Below, piece after piece: positions 2,389 to 15,572 of a stretch of 16,620 bases of DNA. The stretch is from Fibrobacterota bacterium (GTDB lineage Bacteria > Fibrobacterota > Fibrobacteria > UBA11236), in assembly GCA_043753995.1 (NCBI GenBank), contig JAYUVP010000090.1:1-16620 (forward strand). Reading direction: 5' to 3'. A program made the translations under genes and the position numbers. The notes beneath the pieces were generated by a model, which saw nothing but the letters and a program-made list of their open reading frames with translations, ran no database searches and was not told the origin of the DNA. Positions within the stretch are counted from its first letter, which is position 1, and each line of letters starts with the position of its first letter.

Positions 2389-5300
2389 TTAGAAGCCTGT
2401 TCCTTTACAAGACCCCGTTCCTCCATCATTAAAGATGGTGCCGCAATCGATTGTGACGGATTTCTCTACCGTTAGATTTCCCGTATTGTGAATTTGAGTT
2501 GAGGAACCAATGTTTGTGTTGCCATTTCCACTGATGGTAAGATTTCCCTTAAAGGATACCACAGAAGTCGAAGAGGATGTTATTTCGATAGGATAATAGC
2601 TGCCAACTGGATTATTACCGGTAATTTTTCCACCATCCCAGTCGATTTTTCCGTCAATACTTAATACAGCATTATCGGTACCATCAACATCAATAAGTTC
2701 ACAACCGACAAAATTGACATTTAAGGCAGATATTATGCTAATGGGGCCCATAAAGCGAATAGTTCTGAATTTCAAATAATTTGTAAAAGTGGTCAAACCT
2801 TTAATAGTCAACCCATCAAAGACGCAGCTATCGTTTCGAAAAAGGGACACTTGTCCAAGCGTTGTGGAAAAGTTGACCCGGCTATTCAAATCTGTAGGAT
2901 AAGCCGATGCGTTAAACCCTCCGTAAATGTTGAACCAGGATTGATCGGTGCTAATCAACTTAGCTGAATAATCTCCGGAAGCAATCCAAAGATCTTTCCC
3001 ATCGATTGCCGCTCCCTTGGTCAAGTTCACAAAATCAACCAAATCTCCTCTCGCATTTTCCCAACTTGAGCCATCTTTTGAGCCCTGACCTGTGGTTGTG
3101 AAAAAGACGACATTCGATCGTCTCCAAATATGGCGGGTAAGCGTAGAGGGATTTCCCACAGCATCCGTGTTCGCAACCGAACAAGTATTCAAACCATTGT
3201 CGATCGCCAACCTGCACCCGAACTGCTTTGTTACACCATCCGATTTATAGGAGATGAAAAGGGTATCGACATTCGTGATATAACCTTCCCGCACAACCGT
3301 GGTGGTTCCAAACAATTGTACCTCGGTATACACCGGCCCCGTCCTATCCAATTGAATGGTGAAATGCCCTTCGGCTCCCCAACGCCCCATTTCATCTTGC
3401 TCGGAGACATGGATGGCATAAGTCCCGTCGAGATCAGTTGTATCTAAACTCCAGGCGGTTTGCGTTCCGCCCGTTTGCGGATGGGTTCGATAGGCGCTCT
3501 CCGTATTGATTCGCACACGGTATTTGCCATTACCACCGCCACCTGAGGTCCAGGTGAATCTTGGATTATTGGTCAAACCATTATTGGCCACATTCGCTGC
3601 GCTCTTCACATTGGGGATGGCCGGTGGATTCACCTTCACCCGATAACTAAAAGATTTCGCAGGCCCAGTAACGCCCTCTACTTGATCTTTTTCTTTCACC
3701 GTCAAAGTGTGCATGGCATTGTCGGATAGAGCGGTGGTTGGAGAGAAAGTGGTCGAAGCCCAATCGAATTCGACTCCGGCATCCAGCTTCAATACATAAA
3801 CTCCCGTGCCACCATTGGTCGAAGAGGGTGTCCAAGCCCAGGTAGGAGAGAGCGAGGTCGTATAGGACGAATCAATGCCTGTAAACCTCACCGCATCGGG
3901 AGCCCTGGTATCCACGGTTAGCGATTGGCTGGCTGAGGACGAGGCATTTCCTAATGCGTCGACCGAACGCACAAAGAGGGTGTGCCGACCCTCGGTCAAG
4001 GCTCCAGAGGTATAGGTTGTGACCGTCACGTCTAGGGTACCGGTGGGCTTGGCAAAACTGCTGTCATCGAGGCGTACCTGATATTTGGCGGCTCCGACGA
4101 TAGCGCCCCAGCTCCAAGTGGGGGTATTGTCGGCGGTGAAGGCTGGCTGAGCGGTCAGCACCGGAGTTCCTGGGGCGGTTTGGTCCAAGGTGATCACCAC
4201 TTGCGCTGAGCCCGTGCCTCCGGCATTGCTTCGCGAGACTCTGATGGTATTGGGGCCACCTGTCAAGGTGACCACCGAATCCTTCGCCTCATCCACAGCC
4301 TTGGTCGGGTCTTTCACCGTGAACTTGACGGTATAGCTTGCCGTATTCACGGTAATGGCTGAAGCTGGGTCGACGATTTTCACCGTGGGTGCCGCCGGAG
4401 CGGCGACGGTGACGGTGCGCGCAATATCGACAATATTGCCTTCGCTATCCTTGACCTGAAAGGCCACATCGAAAACCTTGACCTGGGAATAGGTCGCCCT
4501 GAAAGTGACCGAATCCATGGCGAGAAGGACTTGCTCATAGCTCCCATTGCCATCCATGTCCGCCTTGATTTCAGCGACCGTACCATACTGCTGGGTCACG
4601 GAAACCTTGAAGCTAGCCTCACCGCCATAGGCGATGGCCTGGTTCGGCGTCACCGAAACCCTGGGCGTATCCGTGACTACGGCCACACTACAGACCGAAG
4701 TCTTGGAAGAATCACCCACCACGGTGGCCGTGATTTGGGCGATTCCGGATTTTAGGCCCTGAACCGCACCGGAACTTTTCACCGAGGCGACGGTGGCATT
4801 GGAGCTGGTAAGGGTGTACTTAGCGCCGCTATCGTTGCCGACCAGAGTGACCGTCAATTGGCTATCTGCTCCACCACTATAGAGGCGCAGGGTTTTAGGA
4901 CTCAGGGTGATGGCATCGACCTTCACGGGCTTGACCACCTGCACTTCGAATTGCTTGGTGATGGAAGCCTTCACCTTGGAGGTGCCGGTGATGATGGCTT
5001 TCCCCAAAATTCCGGATTTGATTTTATTGTCGGGAGTCACCTGTGCGATATTCGTATCGGAGCTGGTCCAGGTCATACCCTGCCCGACGCCCGTGGGATA
5101 AACCGTCCAGAGGATGTCGCTCGTGGATCCGCTCGGGGCAAGAAAGACCGGGACCGGCATATTCACGGCGATGGATTCAGGCTCGGCACCAGCGCTAATG
5201 GTCACATCGAGAACAGCAAAAACGGTCAGCGCTATCGAGCTGGAGGCCGTAACCTTTACGTTTCCCGGCTTCAAGCCTTTGATTCTGTTTCCGAACTCCA

Positions 5301-6123
5301 GAATGGCCAAGTCGGAAGGAGGCAGGGTCCACACCACGGTTTGTCTGGCATCGTCGGGAAGCACGCTGGCATTGAGGGCGATGGAGGCATCGTCCACGGT
5401 CACGATCAGGGGGTTCGGATTGGCAATCACCACGCTTTGGGGGAAACTGGTGGGCGTTGGCAATACGGTGATGCGAAGAGAATCGGAAACATTCGAAGAC
5501 AATGCGCTTGTCGCCTTGAGGACAAATTCTCCCGGGGTGAGACCGGTGATTTTATTGCCCGAAATGATTTCAGCATGGGTGAGATTGGAGACACTCCAAA
5601 GAATGGCTTTGGAAGCCTTGGCATTGTCGAAATCAACTAATAAGGCCACGGTGTCCTTCACATAAAGCCACTTCGAGGCCGGGCTCAGGATGGTGACTTT
5701 TCCTGGGGCAACCTCCCCTGTGGGCGCTTCAGGTAGCAGGGCCAAGCTTTGCGGTTGCGGCGATCCGTTCACGACCTTATTGGTGAAAACCCAGGCCTCG
5801 TTCGTGGTTTTGGATTGCGCCGTAATTCTGACGACAAAGGGTTCGGGAGGCTTGGCGGTCAGAGCCAGCTTAGCCAGCTTGAGGCTATCGGCCCTGAAAT
5901 AGGGCGCGAAGAAAAGGTGTTTTTGCACCACGTTTCCACTCGTATCGAGCAAATCCACTTCAAGCGTGTCGTATTTGCCGGCTTCAACGGTCAAAGAATC
6001 ATTCACCGCCACACGCAAGAAAAAGACTTCCTCAGGATCACTCACATTGCAATTCCACAAGGCGAACGTGGACAAAGCCCCCAGGCAAAGGAGCCAAGCC
6101 CAAAAATGAATTTTCGATTTCAT
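2389..6123 (-). CDS. Large surface (lipo)protein with tandem Ig-like (Big_2-like and DTxAP-type) domains and a C-terminal beta-helix-like domain
   Basis: Signal peptide ending LWNC (lipobox-like). Repeated W[ST]SS/V..A...G.I.G..PG...[IV]TA units resemble Big_2. It also has DQTAP/DTRAP/DRTGP with PTW[SA]W modules, a GSKDGSSWENA motif and a G/N-rich tail. Start placed at 6123 (GGAG upstream). The alternative ATG 6150 overlaps the upstream stop. Confidence 0.85.
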   Translation of the reverse strand: MKSKIHFWAWLLCLGALSTFALWNCNVSDPEEVFFLRVAVNDSLTVEAGKYDTLEVDLLDTSGNVVQKHLFFAPYFRADSLKLAKLALTAKPPEPFVVRITAQSKTTNEAWVFTNKVVNGSPQPQSLALLPEAPTGEVAPGKVTILSPASKWLYVKDTVALLVDFDNAKASKAILWSVSNLTHAEIISGNKITGLTPGEFVLKATSALSSNVSDSLRITVLPTPTSFPQSVVIANPNPLIVTVDDASIALNASVLPDDARQTVVWTLPPSDLAILEFGNRIKGLKPGNVKVTASSSIALTVFAVLDVTISAGAEPESIAVNMPVPVFLAPSGSTSDILWTVYPTGVGQGMTWTSSDTNIAQVTPDNKIKSGILGKAIITGTSKVKASITKQFEVQVVKPVKVDAITLSPKTLRLYSGGADSQLTVTLVGNDSGAKYTLTSSNATVASVKSSGAVQGLKSGIAQITATVVGDSSKTSVCSVAVVTDTPRVSVTPNQAIAYGGEASFKVSVTQQYGTVAEIKADMDGNGSYEQVLLAMDSVTFRATYSQVKVFDVAFQVKDSEGNIVDIARTVTVAAPAAPTVKIVDPASAITVNTASYTVKFTVKDPTKAVDEAKDSVVTLTGGPNTIRVSRSNAGGTGSAQVVITLDQTAPGTPVLTAQPAFTADNTPTWSWGAIVGAAKYQVRLDDSSFAKPTGTLDVTVTTYTSGALTEGRHTLFVRSVDALGNASSSASQSLTVDTRAPDAVRFTGIDSSYTTSLSPTWAWTPSSTNGGTGVYVLKLDAGVEFDWASTTFSPTTALSDNAMHTLTVKEKDQVEGVTGPAKSFSYRVKVNPPAIPNVKSAANVANNGLTNNPRFTWTSGGGGNGKYRVRINTESAYRTHPQTGGTQTAWSLDTTDLDGTYAIHVSEQDEMGRWGAEGHFTIQLDRTGPVYTEVQLFGTTTVVREGYITNVDTLFISYKSDGVTKQFGCRLAIDNGLNTCSVANTDAVGNPSTLTRHIWRRSNVVFFTTTGQGSKDGSSWENARGDLVDFVNLTKGAAIDGKDLWIASGDYSAKLISTDQSWFNIYGGFNASAYPTDLNSRVNFSTTLGQVSLFRNDSCVFDGLTIKGLTTFTNYLKFRTIRFMGPISIISALNVNFVGCELIDVDGTDNAVLSIDGKIDWDGGKITGNNPVGSYYPIEITSSSTSVVSFKGNLTISGNGNTNIGSSTQIHNTGNLTVEKSVTIDCGTIFNDGGTGSCKGTGF

Positions 6124-6146
6124 CGCGCTGCTCCAGCCTTTGCCCA

Positions 6147-6827
6147 TCATGGCTTAGGGGTGCCATCAAGAAGTGTTTCTTTTTTTCCGACAGACTCATT
6201 AGACGACATGACATAGAGCCCTATGCCTCCTCCCACCACCACAGCACCCAAGACCCAAGGCCAAATCGCCATTCCTTTTCTCTCGTCATTCAAACTTTGC
6301 CGGGGAGTATTGCGAATAGGAGTCTTGGTTTTGTCGGAAGCTTCGTCTGATTTTTTTTGATTTGCCAAAGCGGCCATGGCTCCCCCCTCGTCGCTGGATG
6401 CATTGCCGCCTTGTTTCGGATGACCGAGTTCATCGACGGCATTGGCGCTTCTCTGCTCCTTCAGAAATCGCTCTTGGGTTTTTTCAAACAAATTGTTGAC
6501 GGTGGACGACACATACAATTCGGTCAAAGTCACCTTGGGGGAAAGGTCGAATAGCCGAAAGAAGTAAGCCTCGGCCTGCGGTGCGCCATCGGGTCTGCTG
6601 GCATAGACCACGCCTAAATATTTGTAAGCCAGAATTCGTTCGTCGCGTGTTGCGGTGGCGTCGGAGCGCTTGAGAAAGGTTTCGAGTTGGGTGCGGACTT
6701 TGTCGAACTCGCCGTCTTTGTAAAGCTGCTTGATGCCTTGGGGCGATATGCTAGGAGCAGCGCCTTGGACGTAACCTAGAGTTAGTACCGCGAAAATCAG
6801 GGAGAGAAACCAGGGTGAAACTTTCAT
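6147..6827 (-). CDS. Hypothetical exported protein: helical TPR-like N-terminal domain, low-complexity linker, C-terminal TM segment
   Basis: Signal peptide MKVSPWFLSLIFAVLTLGYVQG, TPR-like AYKYLGVVYA...AEAYF, and TM IWPWVLGAVVVGGGIGLYVM. Co-oriented with and adjacent to the Ig-repeat gene. Start inferred at 6827. Confidence 0.75.
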   Translation of the reverse strand: MKVSPWFLSLIFAVLTLGYVQGAAPSISPQGIKQLYKDGEFDKVRTQLETFLKRSDATATRDERILAYKYLGVVYASRPDGAPQAEAYFFRLFDLSPKVTLTELYVSSTVNNLFEKTQERFLKEQRSANAVDELGHPKQGGNASSDEGGAMAALANQKKSDEASDKTKTPIRNTPRQSLNDERKGMAIWPWVLGAVVVGGGIGLYVMSSNESVGKKETLLDGTPKP

Positions 6828-7219
6828 AGGTATTAAACATGTCCTGAATGGCGGGAGTTTGTCCACATCGCCAAAAGGTAGAACGCACAATCAACCTACG
6901 ATGTGACGGCGGTCAACAAATTTGGAAAGTGTTTCAAGAACTGAAGGTTTTTCAGTCTGTTTTTCTAGCCCAATCTTGCTTGTCATTCCTTCGGCGGAAA
7001 TTCATTTCCACTTCACCCCGTCCTCTTACTCCGCCCATCGAGGCACGCCTTAGCCCAATCGTGTGATCGCGCGCACATACTCGTATTTAAATACCGTTTA
7101 AATTTCTCTCCACGCTCTCATGAGTCAAACCTAGGCTCAGCGGAATTTCACTCGGTGGAATCCGCCTAAAGAAACCCAAAACCTGGGTGCTTGCCTTTTT
7201 CCTTTTGGAGAAAACAGCC

Positions 7220-12282: not shown

Positions 12283-12876
12283 TTAGTAGGCCATACCTCT
12301 GGGTATAACCGTGAGAAACATATCTTGCCCACCGGCATGCTTATCCATTTTAACCACATGCCCGGCAATATGTAATCGGGTGCTGCGGTATTCGCAGCCG
12401 GGCTGGCCTTCAACGAAGTTGCATTTGGTGCAGACATCGAGTTCGACGGGTAAGGCCTTTTCAATTTCGAGGGGGGTTCCGGTATAGTCGGTGTCGGTGC
12501 CGTCTATCCATTCCAGTATTTCATCACCGAAATTGAAAAAAACCGTGATACCGGTTTCACGCAAATCGGCGCGCTTTTTGGTGGGGATTCCCACCTTGGT
12601 ACCATAGGCCTGGGCACAAGCATTGGTCTTGGCCTCGTTTTTGGCACTTGGCCCAAGGGGTAGCAAATGGGTGAAGGTCCAGGTTTTGCCGAGGTATTTC
12701 TTCGAGGCATCTTCATAGCTGAGCGAAGCGACATCATTCCAGTCGACGACATTTTCGAGATCGACTTCACCGAGGACGGTGAGCTTGGGTTGGCAGGCTA
12801 TGGGGAGGCTGAAGCAAATCGCAGCAATGGCGAGGGCGGGCAAAAGGGTGAGGGCAAGCTTGAGCAGGTGGCGCAT
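12283..12876 (-). CDS. Hypothetical lipoprotein, possibly OB-fold
   Basis: Hydrophobic signal ending PIAC (lipobox-like). ASKKYLGKTWTF resembles OB-fold lipoprotein motifs (weak). Four further Cys in the mature part. Convergent with the 971-aa gene across a 9-bp gap. Confidence 0.7.
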   Translation of the reverse strand: MRHLLKLALTLLPALAIAAICFSLPIACQPKLTVLGEVDLENVVDWNDVASLSYEDASKKYLGKTWTFTHLLPLGPSAKNEAKTNACAQAYGTKVGIPTKKRADLRETGITVFFNFGDEILEWIDGTDTDYTGTPLEIEKALPVELDVCTKCNFVEGQPGCEYRSTRLHIAGHVVKMDKHAGGQDMFLTVIPRGMAY

Positions 12877-13136
12877 GGCGTAAAGAATAATTTAGCGGGA
12901 GGGGCTACTAAGCCGTGGGAATTGCTTGCCTTTATGGAGATCAAGCTAGGGCAAAATGCCTACGCAATCCCGGCTTAACCGATAAATAAGTACGACTTGC
13001 GATGTGGTAGCCATGTGACGGCCATCACTAAAATTCGGGTTTTTGCATAAGCGACGGGCGGATGACGTCCACCGCTGACCTCTGCATACGCAGAAAATGC
13101 CCCCTATGCAATTGGGCTACAAGGGGATACATCACT

Positions 13137-13332
13137 CCAGGGAAATGCTACCTGGCGCGAAATACTTGCGGGGAAAGGCACCTCCGCGCCGATCCCCGAG
13201 ACCTGGGCAAGCGAATTGGCGGTCACCGCAAACGGACGGGCGAGTTCCGCCTCGACACTTGTGGAGAGGCGGGTGTCTGAGCCCGCCCGGATTGCGGTGA
13301 CATCAGACGATTCGCGTCCCAGCACCAGGGTA
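13137..13332 (+). ncRNA. Putative structured ncRNA, unit 1 (family not recognised)
   Basis: Closing stem CCTGGCGC (13151-13158) / GCACCAGG (13322-13329). Short hairpin GCGGGG/CTCCGC. Long hairpin 13203-13322 including a perfect GTCACCGCAA/TTGCGGTGAC and CCGCCTC/GAGGCGG. Shares motifs with unit 2. Confidence 0.6.
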
Positions 13333-13439
13333 CTGCGATCGCAGGGAGAAGAGAAGCCAATCCCAGAAGTAACGGGGGCGTTACGGGGGCGGCAGCCCCT
13401 GTAGAAGGGGCAGCGAAAGCCCCCTGGGCGCGTTCGTCC

Positions 13440-13657
13440 CCAGGGAAATGCTTACGGCGCGAAAGGAAAGTATGCGACCGGGGAAACGACCACCTTCGCG
13501 ACGAGTCTCCGAGGCCATGGCCAGGGGTGGCGGTGAGAGCCTGAAAATCCGGCTCGCTCCGCAGGCCCAAGACTACTGGGTTATGCAAAGGGCCGAGGAC
13601 CCGCGAGCCGAATTTTCATGGCCGAACATCAGCCACCCCGTCCAGCGCCACGGAGGC
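13440..13657 (+). ncRNA. Putative structured ncRNA, unit 2 (paralogue of unit 1)
   Basis: Closing stem GGCGC (13456-13460) / GCGCC (13645-13649), extendable via GCTT/AGGC. Short hairpin GCGA/TCGC. Long hairpin 13518-13644 including GGGGTGGC/GCCACCCC and 15/16 pairs in TGAAAATCCGGCTCGC/GCGAGCCGAATTTTCA. Confidence 0.6.
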
Positions 13658-13663
13658 TAGAGC

Positions 13664-13683
13664 GCGGGGAAAACCTTCCCCGC
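13664..13683. terminator. Hairpin GCGGGGAA-AACC-TTCCCCGC, probable terminator
   Basis: Perfect 8-bp stem just beyond the methyltransferase stop and directly after ncRNA unit 2. No clear U-tract. Confidence 0.55.
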
Positions 13684-13687
13684 CAGC

Positions 13688-14299
13688 CTACTTACCGGCC
13701 TTCTTCAAAATCCAAATCTCTTCCTTGCCCACGCGCTCGGGCACGCTCTTCTTGGGCACAATGCGCTCGGTCACGTCAAAGACGCCATCGAGACGCGCCA
13801 GCAATTCGCCTTCGGAAGTGGGATGAGGAGGACCATCCAAGGAGGTTGCACGAATGAGCGGGAAAAAGGCCGCGATGACAATGCCACCGGGGACCAGCAT
13901 TTTCTCCCAGACCTCGAAATACTCATCGCGACGGCCAGGATGAATGGCACTGAAGCAATTGTATTCCCAGACAATATCAAAGGGCTCGGTGCTCTTGGGA
14001 TTGAGATCGAAGAGATCGATTTTCAAAGCCGACAGGCGCGGGTGTTTGGCCGCCGAGTCATTGATTTGTCCGAATGCGCTTTGCGCGAAATCGACGGCCA
14101 CGGTGTCGTGACCACGCTCCGCCCAAGCAGCGGCGTCATAGCCACGCCCCGCTCCCGGCACCAAGACGCGCCCCTTTTTCGGGCAGCTCTTATGCTTGAA
14201 GAATTCAAGGAGAATCGGACTGACCTTTCCCAAATCCCAAACATCTTTCTTGGTTTGGTATAGCGATTCCCAATACTCCGGCAAGTTCTGTGTAAGCAT
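13688..14299 (-). CDS. Class I SAM-dependent methyltransferase, thiopurine/thiol S-methyltransferase (TPMT) family
   Basis: YWESLY...WDLG, motif I RVLVPGAGRGYDA, AVDFA, FDIVWEYNCFSAIHP..R..Y and GPPH. TGATG overlap with the rlmN stop. Confidence 0.9.
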   Translation of the reverse strand: MLTQNLPEYWESLYQTKKDVWDLGKVSPILLEFFKHKSCPKKGRVLVPGAGRGYDAAAWAERGHDTVAVDFAQSAFGQINDSAAKHPRLSALKIDLFDLNPKSTEPFDIVWEYNCFSAIHPGRRDEYFEVWEKMLVPGGIVIAAFFPLIRATSLDGPPHPTSEGELLARLDGVFDVTERIVPKKSVPERVGKEEIWILKKAGK

Positions 14300-15396
14300 C
14301 AGACGACCTTTTCAACGTTTGAGGAACCAGGCGCGCCCGCGCCGTTTAAAACTGGGCGACGACGCGTCTGCTGCGCCAATTGGCCGCAGGCGGCTAAAAT
14401 ATCGGGGCCGCGAGCCCGGCGACGCAACACTTGAAACCCACCGCGAGGCCGAAGCAAACGCTCGAACTCGACGATTTCGGCTTCCGTGGGCGCCAACATT
14501 TCTGGATTACCCGCATTGAGCGGAATCAAATTCACTTTGCAACTGCGATGGGCCGCAATTTGCCGCAATTCTTGCGCGGCTTGCGGCGTGCAGGTTTTAC
14601 CTGCAATGAGCACATATTCGAAAGTCAGCACTTGGCCGGTCTTGCTTATATAGGTGTCGGCGGCTTCGAGCAAGGCGGCGATATTCCAACGGCGATTCAC
14701 CGGCATAAGGGCGCTACGCACCGCATCATTGCTGCCATTGAGACTCACGGCCAGCTTAAAGTCGGGAGCGCGATCGGCCCACTCCAGCATTTTCGGAACC
14801 ACGCCTGAAGTCGACACGGTGATATGGTCCTTGCCGATGCCGAAACCTTCGGGCGAGGACAGGCGCTCGCAAGCCAGAGCCACGTTTTCGAGATTGTGCA
14901 TGGGTTCGCCCATGCCCATGAAAATGACATTGGAGAGGCGGCCGCCATCGGTATCACGCAAGTGACGGGCGACGCGATGCGCTTGCTCGAGAATTTCGCC
15001 CAGAGTGAGATTGCGTAAAAACCCCATGGTCGCGGTGCGGCAAAAAGTGCAGCCCATGGCGCAACCGATTTGCGAACTCATGCAAATGGAACGGCGGTCG
15101 GCGCTGGGAATGAGCACGGTTTCAAAGACATGACCGTCATGGGTTTCGAAAGCCCACTTCGTGGTGCCATCGGTAGAAACCTGACGGCCGACTTCGGTCA
15201 AAGTATGAATGCGGGAGCGTGAACGCAGCTCATCAAGGAATGGTTTGGGCAAATTGCTCATGGCATCGAAATCGATCGCCAGAGAACTATGCAACCAAGA
15301 CCAAATCTGTTTCGCTCGAAAGCGAGGTTGACCAAGACCCTGAACCCAAACCTCCATGTCGGCGAGGCTGAGATTCAAGAGAGAAACGAGCTCCAT
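14299..15396 (-). CDS. rlmN: 23S rRNA (adenine2503-C2)-methyltransferase RlmN (radical SAM)
   Basis: FRAKQIWSW, DGTTK, ETVLIP, CMSSQIGCAMGCTFC (CxxxCxxC), FMGMGEP, VSTSG, FEYVLI, VNLIP and AACGQL. Confidence 0.95.
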   Translation of the reverse strand: MELVSLLNLSLADMEVWVQGLGQPRFRAKQIWSWLHSSLAIDFDAMSNLPKPFLDELRSRSRIHTLTEVGRQVSTDGTTKWAFETHDGHVFETVLIPSADRRSICMSSQIGCAMGCTFCRTATMGFLRNLTLGEILEQAHRVARHLRDTDGGRLSNVIFMGMGEPMHNLENVALACERLSSPEGFGIGKDHITVSTSGVVPKMLEWADRAPDFKLAVSLNGSNDAVRSALMPVNRRWNIAALLEAADTYISKTGQVLTFEYVLIAGKTCTPQAAQELRQIAAHRSCKVNLIPLNAGNPEMLAPTEAEIVEFERLLRPRGGFQVLRRRARGPDILAACGQLAQQTRRRPVLNGAGAPGSSNVEKVV

Positions 15397-15572
15397 ACCT
15401 TAGCAAAAGTAAAAAATCTTTCAACTCAGTTAAATCCTTGGTATTAGACCTTCGTTTCAAGGCACCACTTTTGACCATTTGGGGTTCACATGGCCCTTTG
15501 TATAAGCCAATTGGCACTCCCCCTAGCCTAAACGGTTTCCCAGGCTCATATTTTCAAGGTGAAAGCGCCGTT

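Follow-up and report, generated by a model that had tools for sequence, protein, structure and literature searches.

Bacterial MITEs (transposable elements of the miniature inverted-repeat type) include the Correia/NEMIS, ERIC/IRU and RUP families, and the BOX elements of Streptococcus pneumoniae are composed of linear modules in the arrangement boxA-(boxB)n-boxC. Repetitive extragenic palindromes (REPs) are, in the part of the source available to us, GTAG-tagged palindromes of 20-40 bp located mostly downstream of open reading frames (ORFs) (PMC3733652). REPs, the bacterial interspersed mosaic elements (BIMEs) formed from them and the REP doublets forming hairpins (REPINs) are GTAG-tagged palindromic repeats mobilised by REP-associated tyrosine transposases (RAYTs), again as far as the available sections of the sources go (PMC3733652, PMC3116915). 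A further multicopy motif, MRSC-65-2, covaries and occurs across phyla, and is classed in the accessible text as a probable selfish element and not as a non-coding RNA (ncRNA) (Narunsky et al., 2024, PMC11109978). The DNA examined here (the window) is a 16,620-nt contig from a Fibrobacterota bacterium, in which an initial annotation, made from the sequence alone, had placed a tandem pair or mini-array of structured RNA genes at 13137-13657. In the window we find a copy and a half of an interspersed repeat that is structured and modular and has a core shared across phyla. We consider it fairly probable that the region is a non-coding, non-autonomous repeat which acts like REP/BIME elements or MITEs and is most likely selfish mobile DNA. 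The analysis thereby defines a previously uncatalogued structured interspersed element with a core present in two phyla, a nested modular anatomy and, in this genome, a preference for positions after stop codons.

Like REP/BIME sequences, the element is built on a palindrome, short and imperfect, with what may be an unpaired tag, G(T/C)AG, occurs in dozens of extragenic copies which form mosaics with units in alternating orientation, and lies mostly downstream of ORFs. Unlike them, its core is a unit of about 65 nt with three hairpins in which loop expansion leads to forms of up to 300 nt, it has no RAYT/Y1 gene in its own genome or in three of five other carriers, and it is common to Fibrobacterota and Spirochaetota, with a Spirochaetaceae branch bearing terminal inverted repeats (TIRs) and flanking duplications. 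As with BOX elements, there are separable sub-modules and an intergenic multicopy distribution, but the sequence and host phylum are unrelated and the modules nest in hairpin loops instead of following one another. With MITEs the element shares its non-coding nature, a length below 350 nt, multiple copies, strong folding and presence/absence polymorphism (a 323-nt indel), as well as, in one Spirochaetaceae genome, 17-nt TIRs and 11-16-nt flanking direct repeats. It differs from them in that the copies of its own genome lack detectable TIRs or target duplications, no parent insertion sequence was found there, the conserved part is internal and not terminal, and in its own genome the orientation is strongly biased to gene ends. 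The unit is also longer and more complex than the 20-40-bp REPs of the accessible description (PMC3733652). MRSC-65-2 is similar as a multicopy structured motif with strong covariation in several phyla; the comparison is by description only, and in the portion of the paper available it is a single long stem (PMC11109978).

The window is one whole contig (C90) of a 356-contig genome that is 97.3% complete. Within this genome, 13120-13670 has 39 BLAST matches. Iterated nhmmer gave 80, which reduce to 50 loci without overlap, spread over more than 30 contigs; full length on the 302-position profile is reached by 21. The 21 full copies constitute the main alignment (A3), from which covariance model R1 was built. 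R1 was searched as the initial annotation had proposed, with 47 matches in the own genome and minimal copies in related genomes (described below). Copies are present at the ends of contigs C57, C319, C147, C284 and C213, where assembly-breaking repeats are expected. The tabulation of neighbouring genes, likewise proposed, revealed no recurrent protein family among 197 ORFs within 3 kb of copies (neighbour-protein clustering). With about 50 dispersed loci, and a pair that is not conserved in a related strain, the notion of a tandem array of ncRNA genes had to be given up and the apparent pair of novel RNA genes, now part of a repeat family, is removed as a false lead. The suggestion of an unrecognised ncRNA family survives in so far as the structured family is absent from Rfam 15, which has no match in the window at gathering score and only chance-level matches at E <= 10 in 12850-13720. 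Repeats of this kind break assemblies, seed recombination, for which the strain polymorphism described below may be compared, and have repeatedly been mistaken for regulatory RNAs.

The two units lie within an 810-nt gap between two minus-strand ORFs. They share CCAGGGAAATGCT at 13137 and 13440 and GGCGCGAAA at 13154 and 13456, exactly where the initial annotation had put them, and further motifs align in order. The pattern CCAGGGAAATGCT-N2-8-GGCGCGAAA occurs three times in the 5.2-Mb genome and the reversed-pattern control not at all. Both units fold into a long hairpin, as reported earlier, and are more stable than shuffled sequences (z = -4.9 for unit 1 and -4.1 for unit 2, with 0 of 200 shuffles as stable). 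Unit 2 is a complete copy of the roughly 300-nt element on the plus strand (13372-13684; nhmmer profile positions 2-302, 219.5 bits; 225.3 bits with R1 over 13402-13684). The unit boundaries first drawn needed correction, as the complete element is the annotated second unit together with a 5′ module and a terminal hairpin.

In unit 2, the G-rich 5′ module H0 (13369-13401, plus strand) stands ahead of the core and consists of GTAACGGGGGC GTTACGGGGGC followed by a GC hairpin; it is kept in at least 16 of the 21 full copies, and a GGGGCGTTGCGGGG..CCCCGCAGAG module as in H0 is also present 5′ of cores in Fibrobacteria and Treponema records. The 5′ strand of P1 (13413-13431), a long-range closing helix, pairs with the 3′ strand at 13645-13663 (GCGCC..GGAGGCT..GC), with double-sided change in 5 of 14 pairs (helices 1-2). 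It closes a junction holding P2 and the 120-nt hairpin P3. P2 (13455-13503), the scaffold of the initial annotation, is a GGCGCG..CGCGCC helix (13455-13461 with 13497-13503; double-sided change in 7 of 7 pairs) around a variable GGGGAAA-type hairpin, and P3 (13524-13639) is a long hairpin of type 2 with an invariant G-U at its base (helices 4-9 of the alignment). The terminal hairpin T (GGGGAAAACCTTCCCC, 13666-13681) stands 3′ of P1, with double-sided change in 4 of 6 pairs and 96.7% of cells paired. All of these features are on the plus strand, as are those of unit 1.

Unit 1 is a partial copy (13130-13316, nhmmer profile positions 63-263 of 302), scoring 61.8 bits with R1 over 13124-13320 (model positions 27-238 of 273). 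It contains the scaffold (13137-13215) and a long hairpin of type 1 (about 13216-13305, arms at 13222-13231 and 13292-13301) and has neither a 3′ P1 strand of its own nor a terminal hairpin. Read against unit 2, the segment 13090-13129 is a degenerate remnant of its 5′ P1 strand, in which 13090-13105 repeats 13410-13425 at 81%. The two long hairpins had been thought to have diverged in place; they are instead two subtypes, and further copies of both, 75-93% identical, are present in the genome: type 1 at six or more other loci (including contigs C323, C109, C249, C353 and C224) and type 2 at 25 or more. At 12 loci the P3 hairpin stands without the rest of the element, in many cases in inverted orientation and some 100 nt upstream of a full copy. 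Many full copies additionally possess a conserved upstream extension of 220-250 nt made up of an inverted third hairpin subtype and GCGCCGACCGCCTTCGCGCCCGCAGGGAAAT (for example C245:17664-17880, C45:6507-6733, C323:10141-10364 and C56:4496-4636), so that some copies are in fact composite and about 550 nt in length.

Across the 21 full copies, 89.9% of the cells of 59 pairs are paired, as against 38-47% with the 3′ partners slid, and 25 of the 59 pairs show double-sided change; none of 500 shuffles reaches the observed values. As these copies are paralogues, such covariation figures overstate their independence. In 30 copies from other genera, 89.8% of cells are paired and the covariation score is 0.257 against 0.095, and among 99 distinct cross-phylum cores one pair is AT in 60, GC in 38 and GT in one, while another is CG in 90 and GC in 7. 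The conserved scaffold with variable stems and compensatory change proposed at the outset is thus borne out in the own-genome, relatives' and cross-phylum sets. Loop lengths in the cross-phylum cores are not multiples of three and the three overlapping ORFs (13062-13280, 13223-13588 and 13448-13660) gave no match in a Pfam search; the element is therefore not coding, in keeping with the earlier impression that these ORFs look spurious.

In the core of about 65 nt, the imperfect hairpin P1 bears G(T/C)AG at its 5′ base, has internal loops rich in purines and is followed by the GC hairpin T; the G-rich 5′ module lies ahead of P1. All 99 distinct cores retain GGGGNAG, in most cases with GTAG, and the full copies of the own genome have both GCAG and GTAG. 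With model R1, minimal copies come up in 10 of the 31 other genomes examined from the same family. All of these copies measure 57-110 nt and extend over the full model apart from some 200 central positions, which are deleted; they consist of P1, with a short hairpin specific to the locus at its apex, and T. They are visible only with the covariance model, since BLAST of the element against 40 relatives gave just two tiny matches. In the own genome there are at least 11 minimal copies, in which 1-12 nt separate the two halves, as well as intermediates with P2 and without P3 on contigs C98 (131 nt) and C213 (164 nt), and some copies have insertions in the T loop and in the loop of the 5′ hairpin. 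The modules thus form a series of core alone, core with P2, core with P2 and P3, and P3 alone. From the minimal copies and the P2-only intermediates it follows that the 300-nt form is a minimal element with hairpin modules nested in the P1 loop. Hairpin loops would be the sites of expansion, and in the lineage of this genome the P1 loop would have gained P2 first and then the 90-125-nt P3 in its two subtypes.

When an exact degenerate pattern for the minimal core was scanned across sequence collections, it was found in 103 stretches of a one-genome-per-species collection, in 93 stretches of metagenome contigs and in none of the viral contigs. The titles in the genome collection are mostly Fibrobacterota (including Chitinivibrionales and Fibrobacter) and Spirochaetota (Treponema, Spirochaetaceae and Rectinemataceae), the matches outside these phyla being one metagenome-assembled genome (MAG) of Acholeplasmataceae and one of Bacteroidales. 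Single genomes contain a dozen or more core copies. Thirteen foreign core loci compared with Rfam at E <= 0.1 gave nothing matching the element, and a full-text literature search (without supplements) found the family described nowhere, whether in Fibrobacter, Treponema or elsewhere. At L099, L111, L115, L125, L148 and other loci of one Fibrobacterota MAG, the cores are preceded by a conserved 5′ module of their own of about 50 nt (ACAACAATGCATGGTCTTGCAGCTGCTTTGTCAAGGCGGCTACCCAGGAG). This module holds TTGCAG-N18-TACCCA, which was considered as a possible weak sigma-70-like promoter and dropped as weak on inspection.

Evidence for mobility comes from strain comparison and from the Spirochaetaceae. 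A 13,584-nt contig of metagenome X3, whose identity over 13642-15400 (the TPMT-rlmN genes) is about 92.5%, has 13318 and 13642 directly joined, as does metagenome X5. The skipped 323 nt (13319-13641, plus strand) comprise the spacer, 5′ module, P1 5′ strand, scaffold and type 2 hairpin of the window, so that in the related strain the type 1 hairpin runs straight into the 3′ P1 strand and T (the contig ends inside the hairpin). The pair itself is therefore not conserved. From run X1, the probable source, a 380-nt contig spans 13261-13640 with zero differences from the window. The indel is bounded by a repeated GTCC(C)AGC, which fits either recombination between copies or nested insertion, as judged from these sequences. 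In one Spirochaetaceae genome (G049) the core is carried within a 180-196-nt unit bounded by 17-nt inverted repeats. The TIR CGGTCAACNNGTTRMGG has 17 forward and 17 reverse matches there, in inverted pairs 163-180 nt apart, and units in this subfamily are flanked by direct repeats of 11-16 nt (L112, L116, L117, L127 and L208). Flanking direct repeats of at least 11 nt occur at 6 of 72 foreign loci against 1 of 360 mismatched controls and are concentrated in the Spirochaetaceae subfamily. A further example, the MITE at L208:1196-1375, carries the core in reverse orientation within a perfect 12-nt direct repeat (GGGAAGCTTTAG) and was missed by R1 with default filters.

On this basis, copies of a selfish element would spread by means of a transposase or recombinase acting in trans and recognising folded or terminal sequences, and the pair in the window would stem from ectopic recombination or nested insertion between copies. 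Insertions would survive mainly in the harmless slot directly after a stop codon, and effects on the host, such as 3′-end protection or termination, would be secondary.

Several observations weigh against the selfish mobile repeat. Flanking direct repeats of at least 8 nt were present at 1 of 27 copies in the own genome, compared with 21 of 216 mismatched controls, and no TIRs were recognised at the ends of these copies. The initial annotation had named many dispersed copies with target duplications as the mark of a MITE; the dispersal was found, at about 50 loci, and the duplications did not exceed the control in this genome. The Y1 (RAYT/IS200) transposase family PF01797 has no match in the 97.3%-complete genome, and a TnpB-type search there gave one marginal PF07282 hit (26.2 bits) on contig C145, which is without copies. 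A linkage to tnpB or tnpA, as for an IS200/IS605 TnpB omega-RNA or a palindrome-associated transposable element (PATE), was not found in the own genome, where no 5′ half was parted from a 3′ half by the length of a gene. Random transposition alone would not be expected to give so strong a convergent orientation bias as the own genome shows. In other genomes the bias is weak, 26 Pfam-supported downstream genes being convergent and 16 co-directional; this count rests on 84 candidate downstream ORFs at 56 loci, 42 of them with Pfam support. Finally, the core is nearly identical in sequence across two phyla, with variable loops and fixed junction nucleotides, which fits a functional RNA as well.

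These last features, the near identity across phyla, the retained junction and internal-loop nucleotides, the covarying helices and the loops of differing length, would favour a multicopy small RNA, transcribed from the plus strand and convergent to the neighbouring gene. The three-hairpin core would be its protein-binding or catalytic scaffold and T its 3′ end, while transcription continuing beyond T would produce an RNA antisense to the 3′ end of the gene. A symmetric purine-rich GGA/GGA internal loop with an A.G mismatch, kept in 90 of 99 cores, also speaks for such an RNA, as does a preference for one strand. On the plus strand, G-U pairs exceed A-C in the own-genome copies (about 48 against 22, one invariant G-U being left out), in relatives (17 against 4) and in the 99 cross-phylum cores (3 against 0), and the P1 region folds slightly better on that strand (31 of 52 cores, Wilcoxon p = 0.0015). 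Because of these two results and the purine-rich internal loops the plus strand is moderately favoured, in agreement with the choice made at the outset. The whole element, however, does not fold differently on the two strands (plus better in 13 of 21, p = 0.17), which speaks against a small RNA, and G-U counts from single-sequence folds are contradictory (19 forward, 43 reverse).

Other signs of a transcription unit were sought. No promoter-like site was found in 12700-13900, and no conserved sequence was seen upstream of the 5′ module in the aligned flanks of copies or among solo copies. Unlike an intrinsic (Rho-independent) terminator, T has no U tract; a terminator scan gave no entry at 13666-13681 on either strand, no U run follows T in the window, and none of the tails after T in 26 copies is a U run. 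Dozens of copies with truncated and hairpin-only derivatives, a branch with TIRs and flanking duplications, and a pair that is polymorphic between strains are likewise difficult to reconcile with RNA genes, and we regard the small RNA as an unlikely explanation. Contigs of metatranscriptome X8 contain family copies and parts of rlmN, and these contigs show neither strand nor transcription, DNA in the library being possible. Two other candidate features were discarded, namely a k-turn in P1, as the GA positions do not fit by eye, and a tRNA-like ACCA tail after T, which only some copies have.

The positions of the copies relative to genes bear on a second RNA function. In the window, the convergent neighbour is a TPMT-type methyltransferase gene on the minus strand (13688-14299; Pfam PF05724, E = 1.2e-23) whose stop codon is 6-7 nt from the end of the element. 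On the far side, a minus-strand gene (12283-12876, 197 aa, no Pfam match) has its start facing the element over about 250 nt. Of the 35 3′ halves in the genome, 23 have T overlapping a convergent stop codon or 0-26 nt away from it, and 27 have it no more than 60 nt away. Sixteen of 20 such stop-adjacent neighbours have Pfam domains of unrelated housekeeping families, among them LepA, chorismate synthase, G6PD, SOD, RNase E/G and RseP. A copy at C252:6845-6884 overlaps, with its terminal hairpin, the final 13 codons of an MbnB/TglH/ChrH-family gene, and the repeat here supplies the C-terminus of the protein and the stop codon. Tests of orientation across phyla with stop-to-stop ORFs were dropped, as both strands of GC-rich DNA contain long frames that are spurious.

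Such placement, with 23 of 35 copies beginning on the gene strand no more than 26 nt from a stop codon or overlapping it and the perfect GC hairpin T coming first after the stop, could reflect a 3′ untranslated region (3′-UTR) module on the strand of the gene itself. This would be a terminator or a block to 3′-exonucleases, as proposed for REPs, kept for the benefit of the upstream gene. REPs too lie mostly downstream of ORFs and may act as RNA, according to the available part of PMC3733652. On the gene strand, however, the G-U pairs become A-C mismatches and the purine loops turn into pyrimidine loops, and no U tract follows the hairpin in either orientation. Furthermore, the 16 of 42 Pfam-supported downstream genes in other genomes that are co-directional place those copies 5′ of a gene, and the role requires only a simple hairpin and not a 300-nt mosaic. 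A 3′-UTR module is accordingly improbable in our view.

A somewhat different possibility, which we hold to be unlikely, is that the three-hairpin core of about 65 nt (G-rich 5′ module, tagged P1 with its GGA/GGA purine loops, and T) is itself the functional module. It would be a protein-recognition or self-processing unit of RNA or single-stranded DNA (ssDNA), carried in different mobile shells and kept with hardly a change of letter from Fibrobacterota to Spirochaetota, and selected in the present genome to lie antisense behind stop codons and act on the 3′ end of the neighbouring gene.

A last alternative is that the element is a substrate for ssDNA recombination, REP/RAYT-like or attC-like, in which a Y1/HUH enzyme or a tyrosine recombinase would read the folded plus strand and G(T/C)AG. 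Like integron attC sites, the copies are imperfect hairpins with a conserved stem base and a variable end or terminal structure, lying just after stop codons with a fold opposite to the gene, as in attC bottom strands. Unlike attC, they neighbour core housekeeping genes on more than 30 contigs and not cassette arrays, and the attC R′/R″ core motifs (RYYYAAC/GTTRRRY) were not seen by eye in the copies. GTAG or GCAG directly 5′ of an imperfect palindrome agrees with the GTAG-tagged definition of REPs in the accessible text (PMC3733652), and inverted hairpin-only modules adjoin full copies in a REPIN-like manner. Nevertheless, Y1_Tnp (PF01797) was not found in the own genome, as mentioned, or in three of five other carrier genomes, and the Y1 loci of G052 (within 1.5 kb) and of G049 have no core match at E <= 1 with R1. 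The 11-16-nt duplications of the Spirochaetaceae branch point to a cut-and-paste enzyme of the DDE type; HUH enzymes are not known to leave target duplications. Such a substrate is thus very unlikely to account for the family.

Genome G049, a Spirochaetaceae MAG of 1.7 Mb, has about 30 copies of a short ORF (open frames of 120-236 aa) with weak Y1_Tnp (PF01797) matches of 22-37 bits, at loci L202 and L204-L210 (for example L208:1369-1968). Three of these Y1-like ORFs (contigs C58, C158 and C53) lie 130-300 nt from a TIR-bounded MITE carrying the core, and the MITE at L208 precedes the ATG of a Y1-like gene by about 95 nt.

Two further features were observed in the window away from the repeat. 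At 2389-6890 there is a 1253-aa protein with bacterial Ig-like domains (Big_2 and Big_13); the ORF ahead of it has 247 aa and no Pfam match. The segment 7187-12273 encodes a PAAR-motif protein of 724 aa followed by a 971-aa ORF without a Pfam match, the stop and start codons overlapping; these two genes may represent a pair of the polymorphic-toxin or type VI secretion system spike type.

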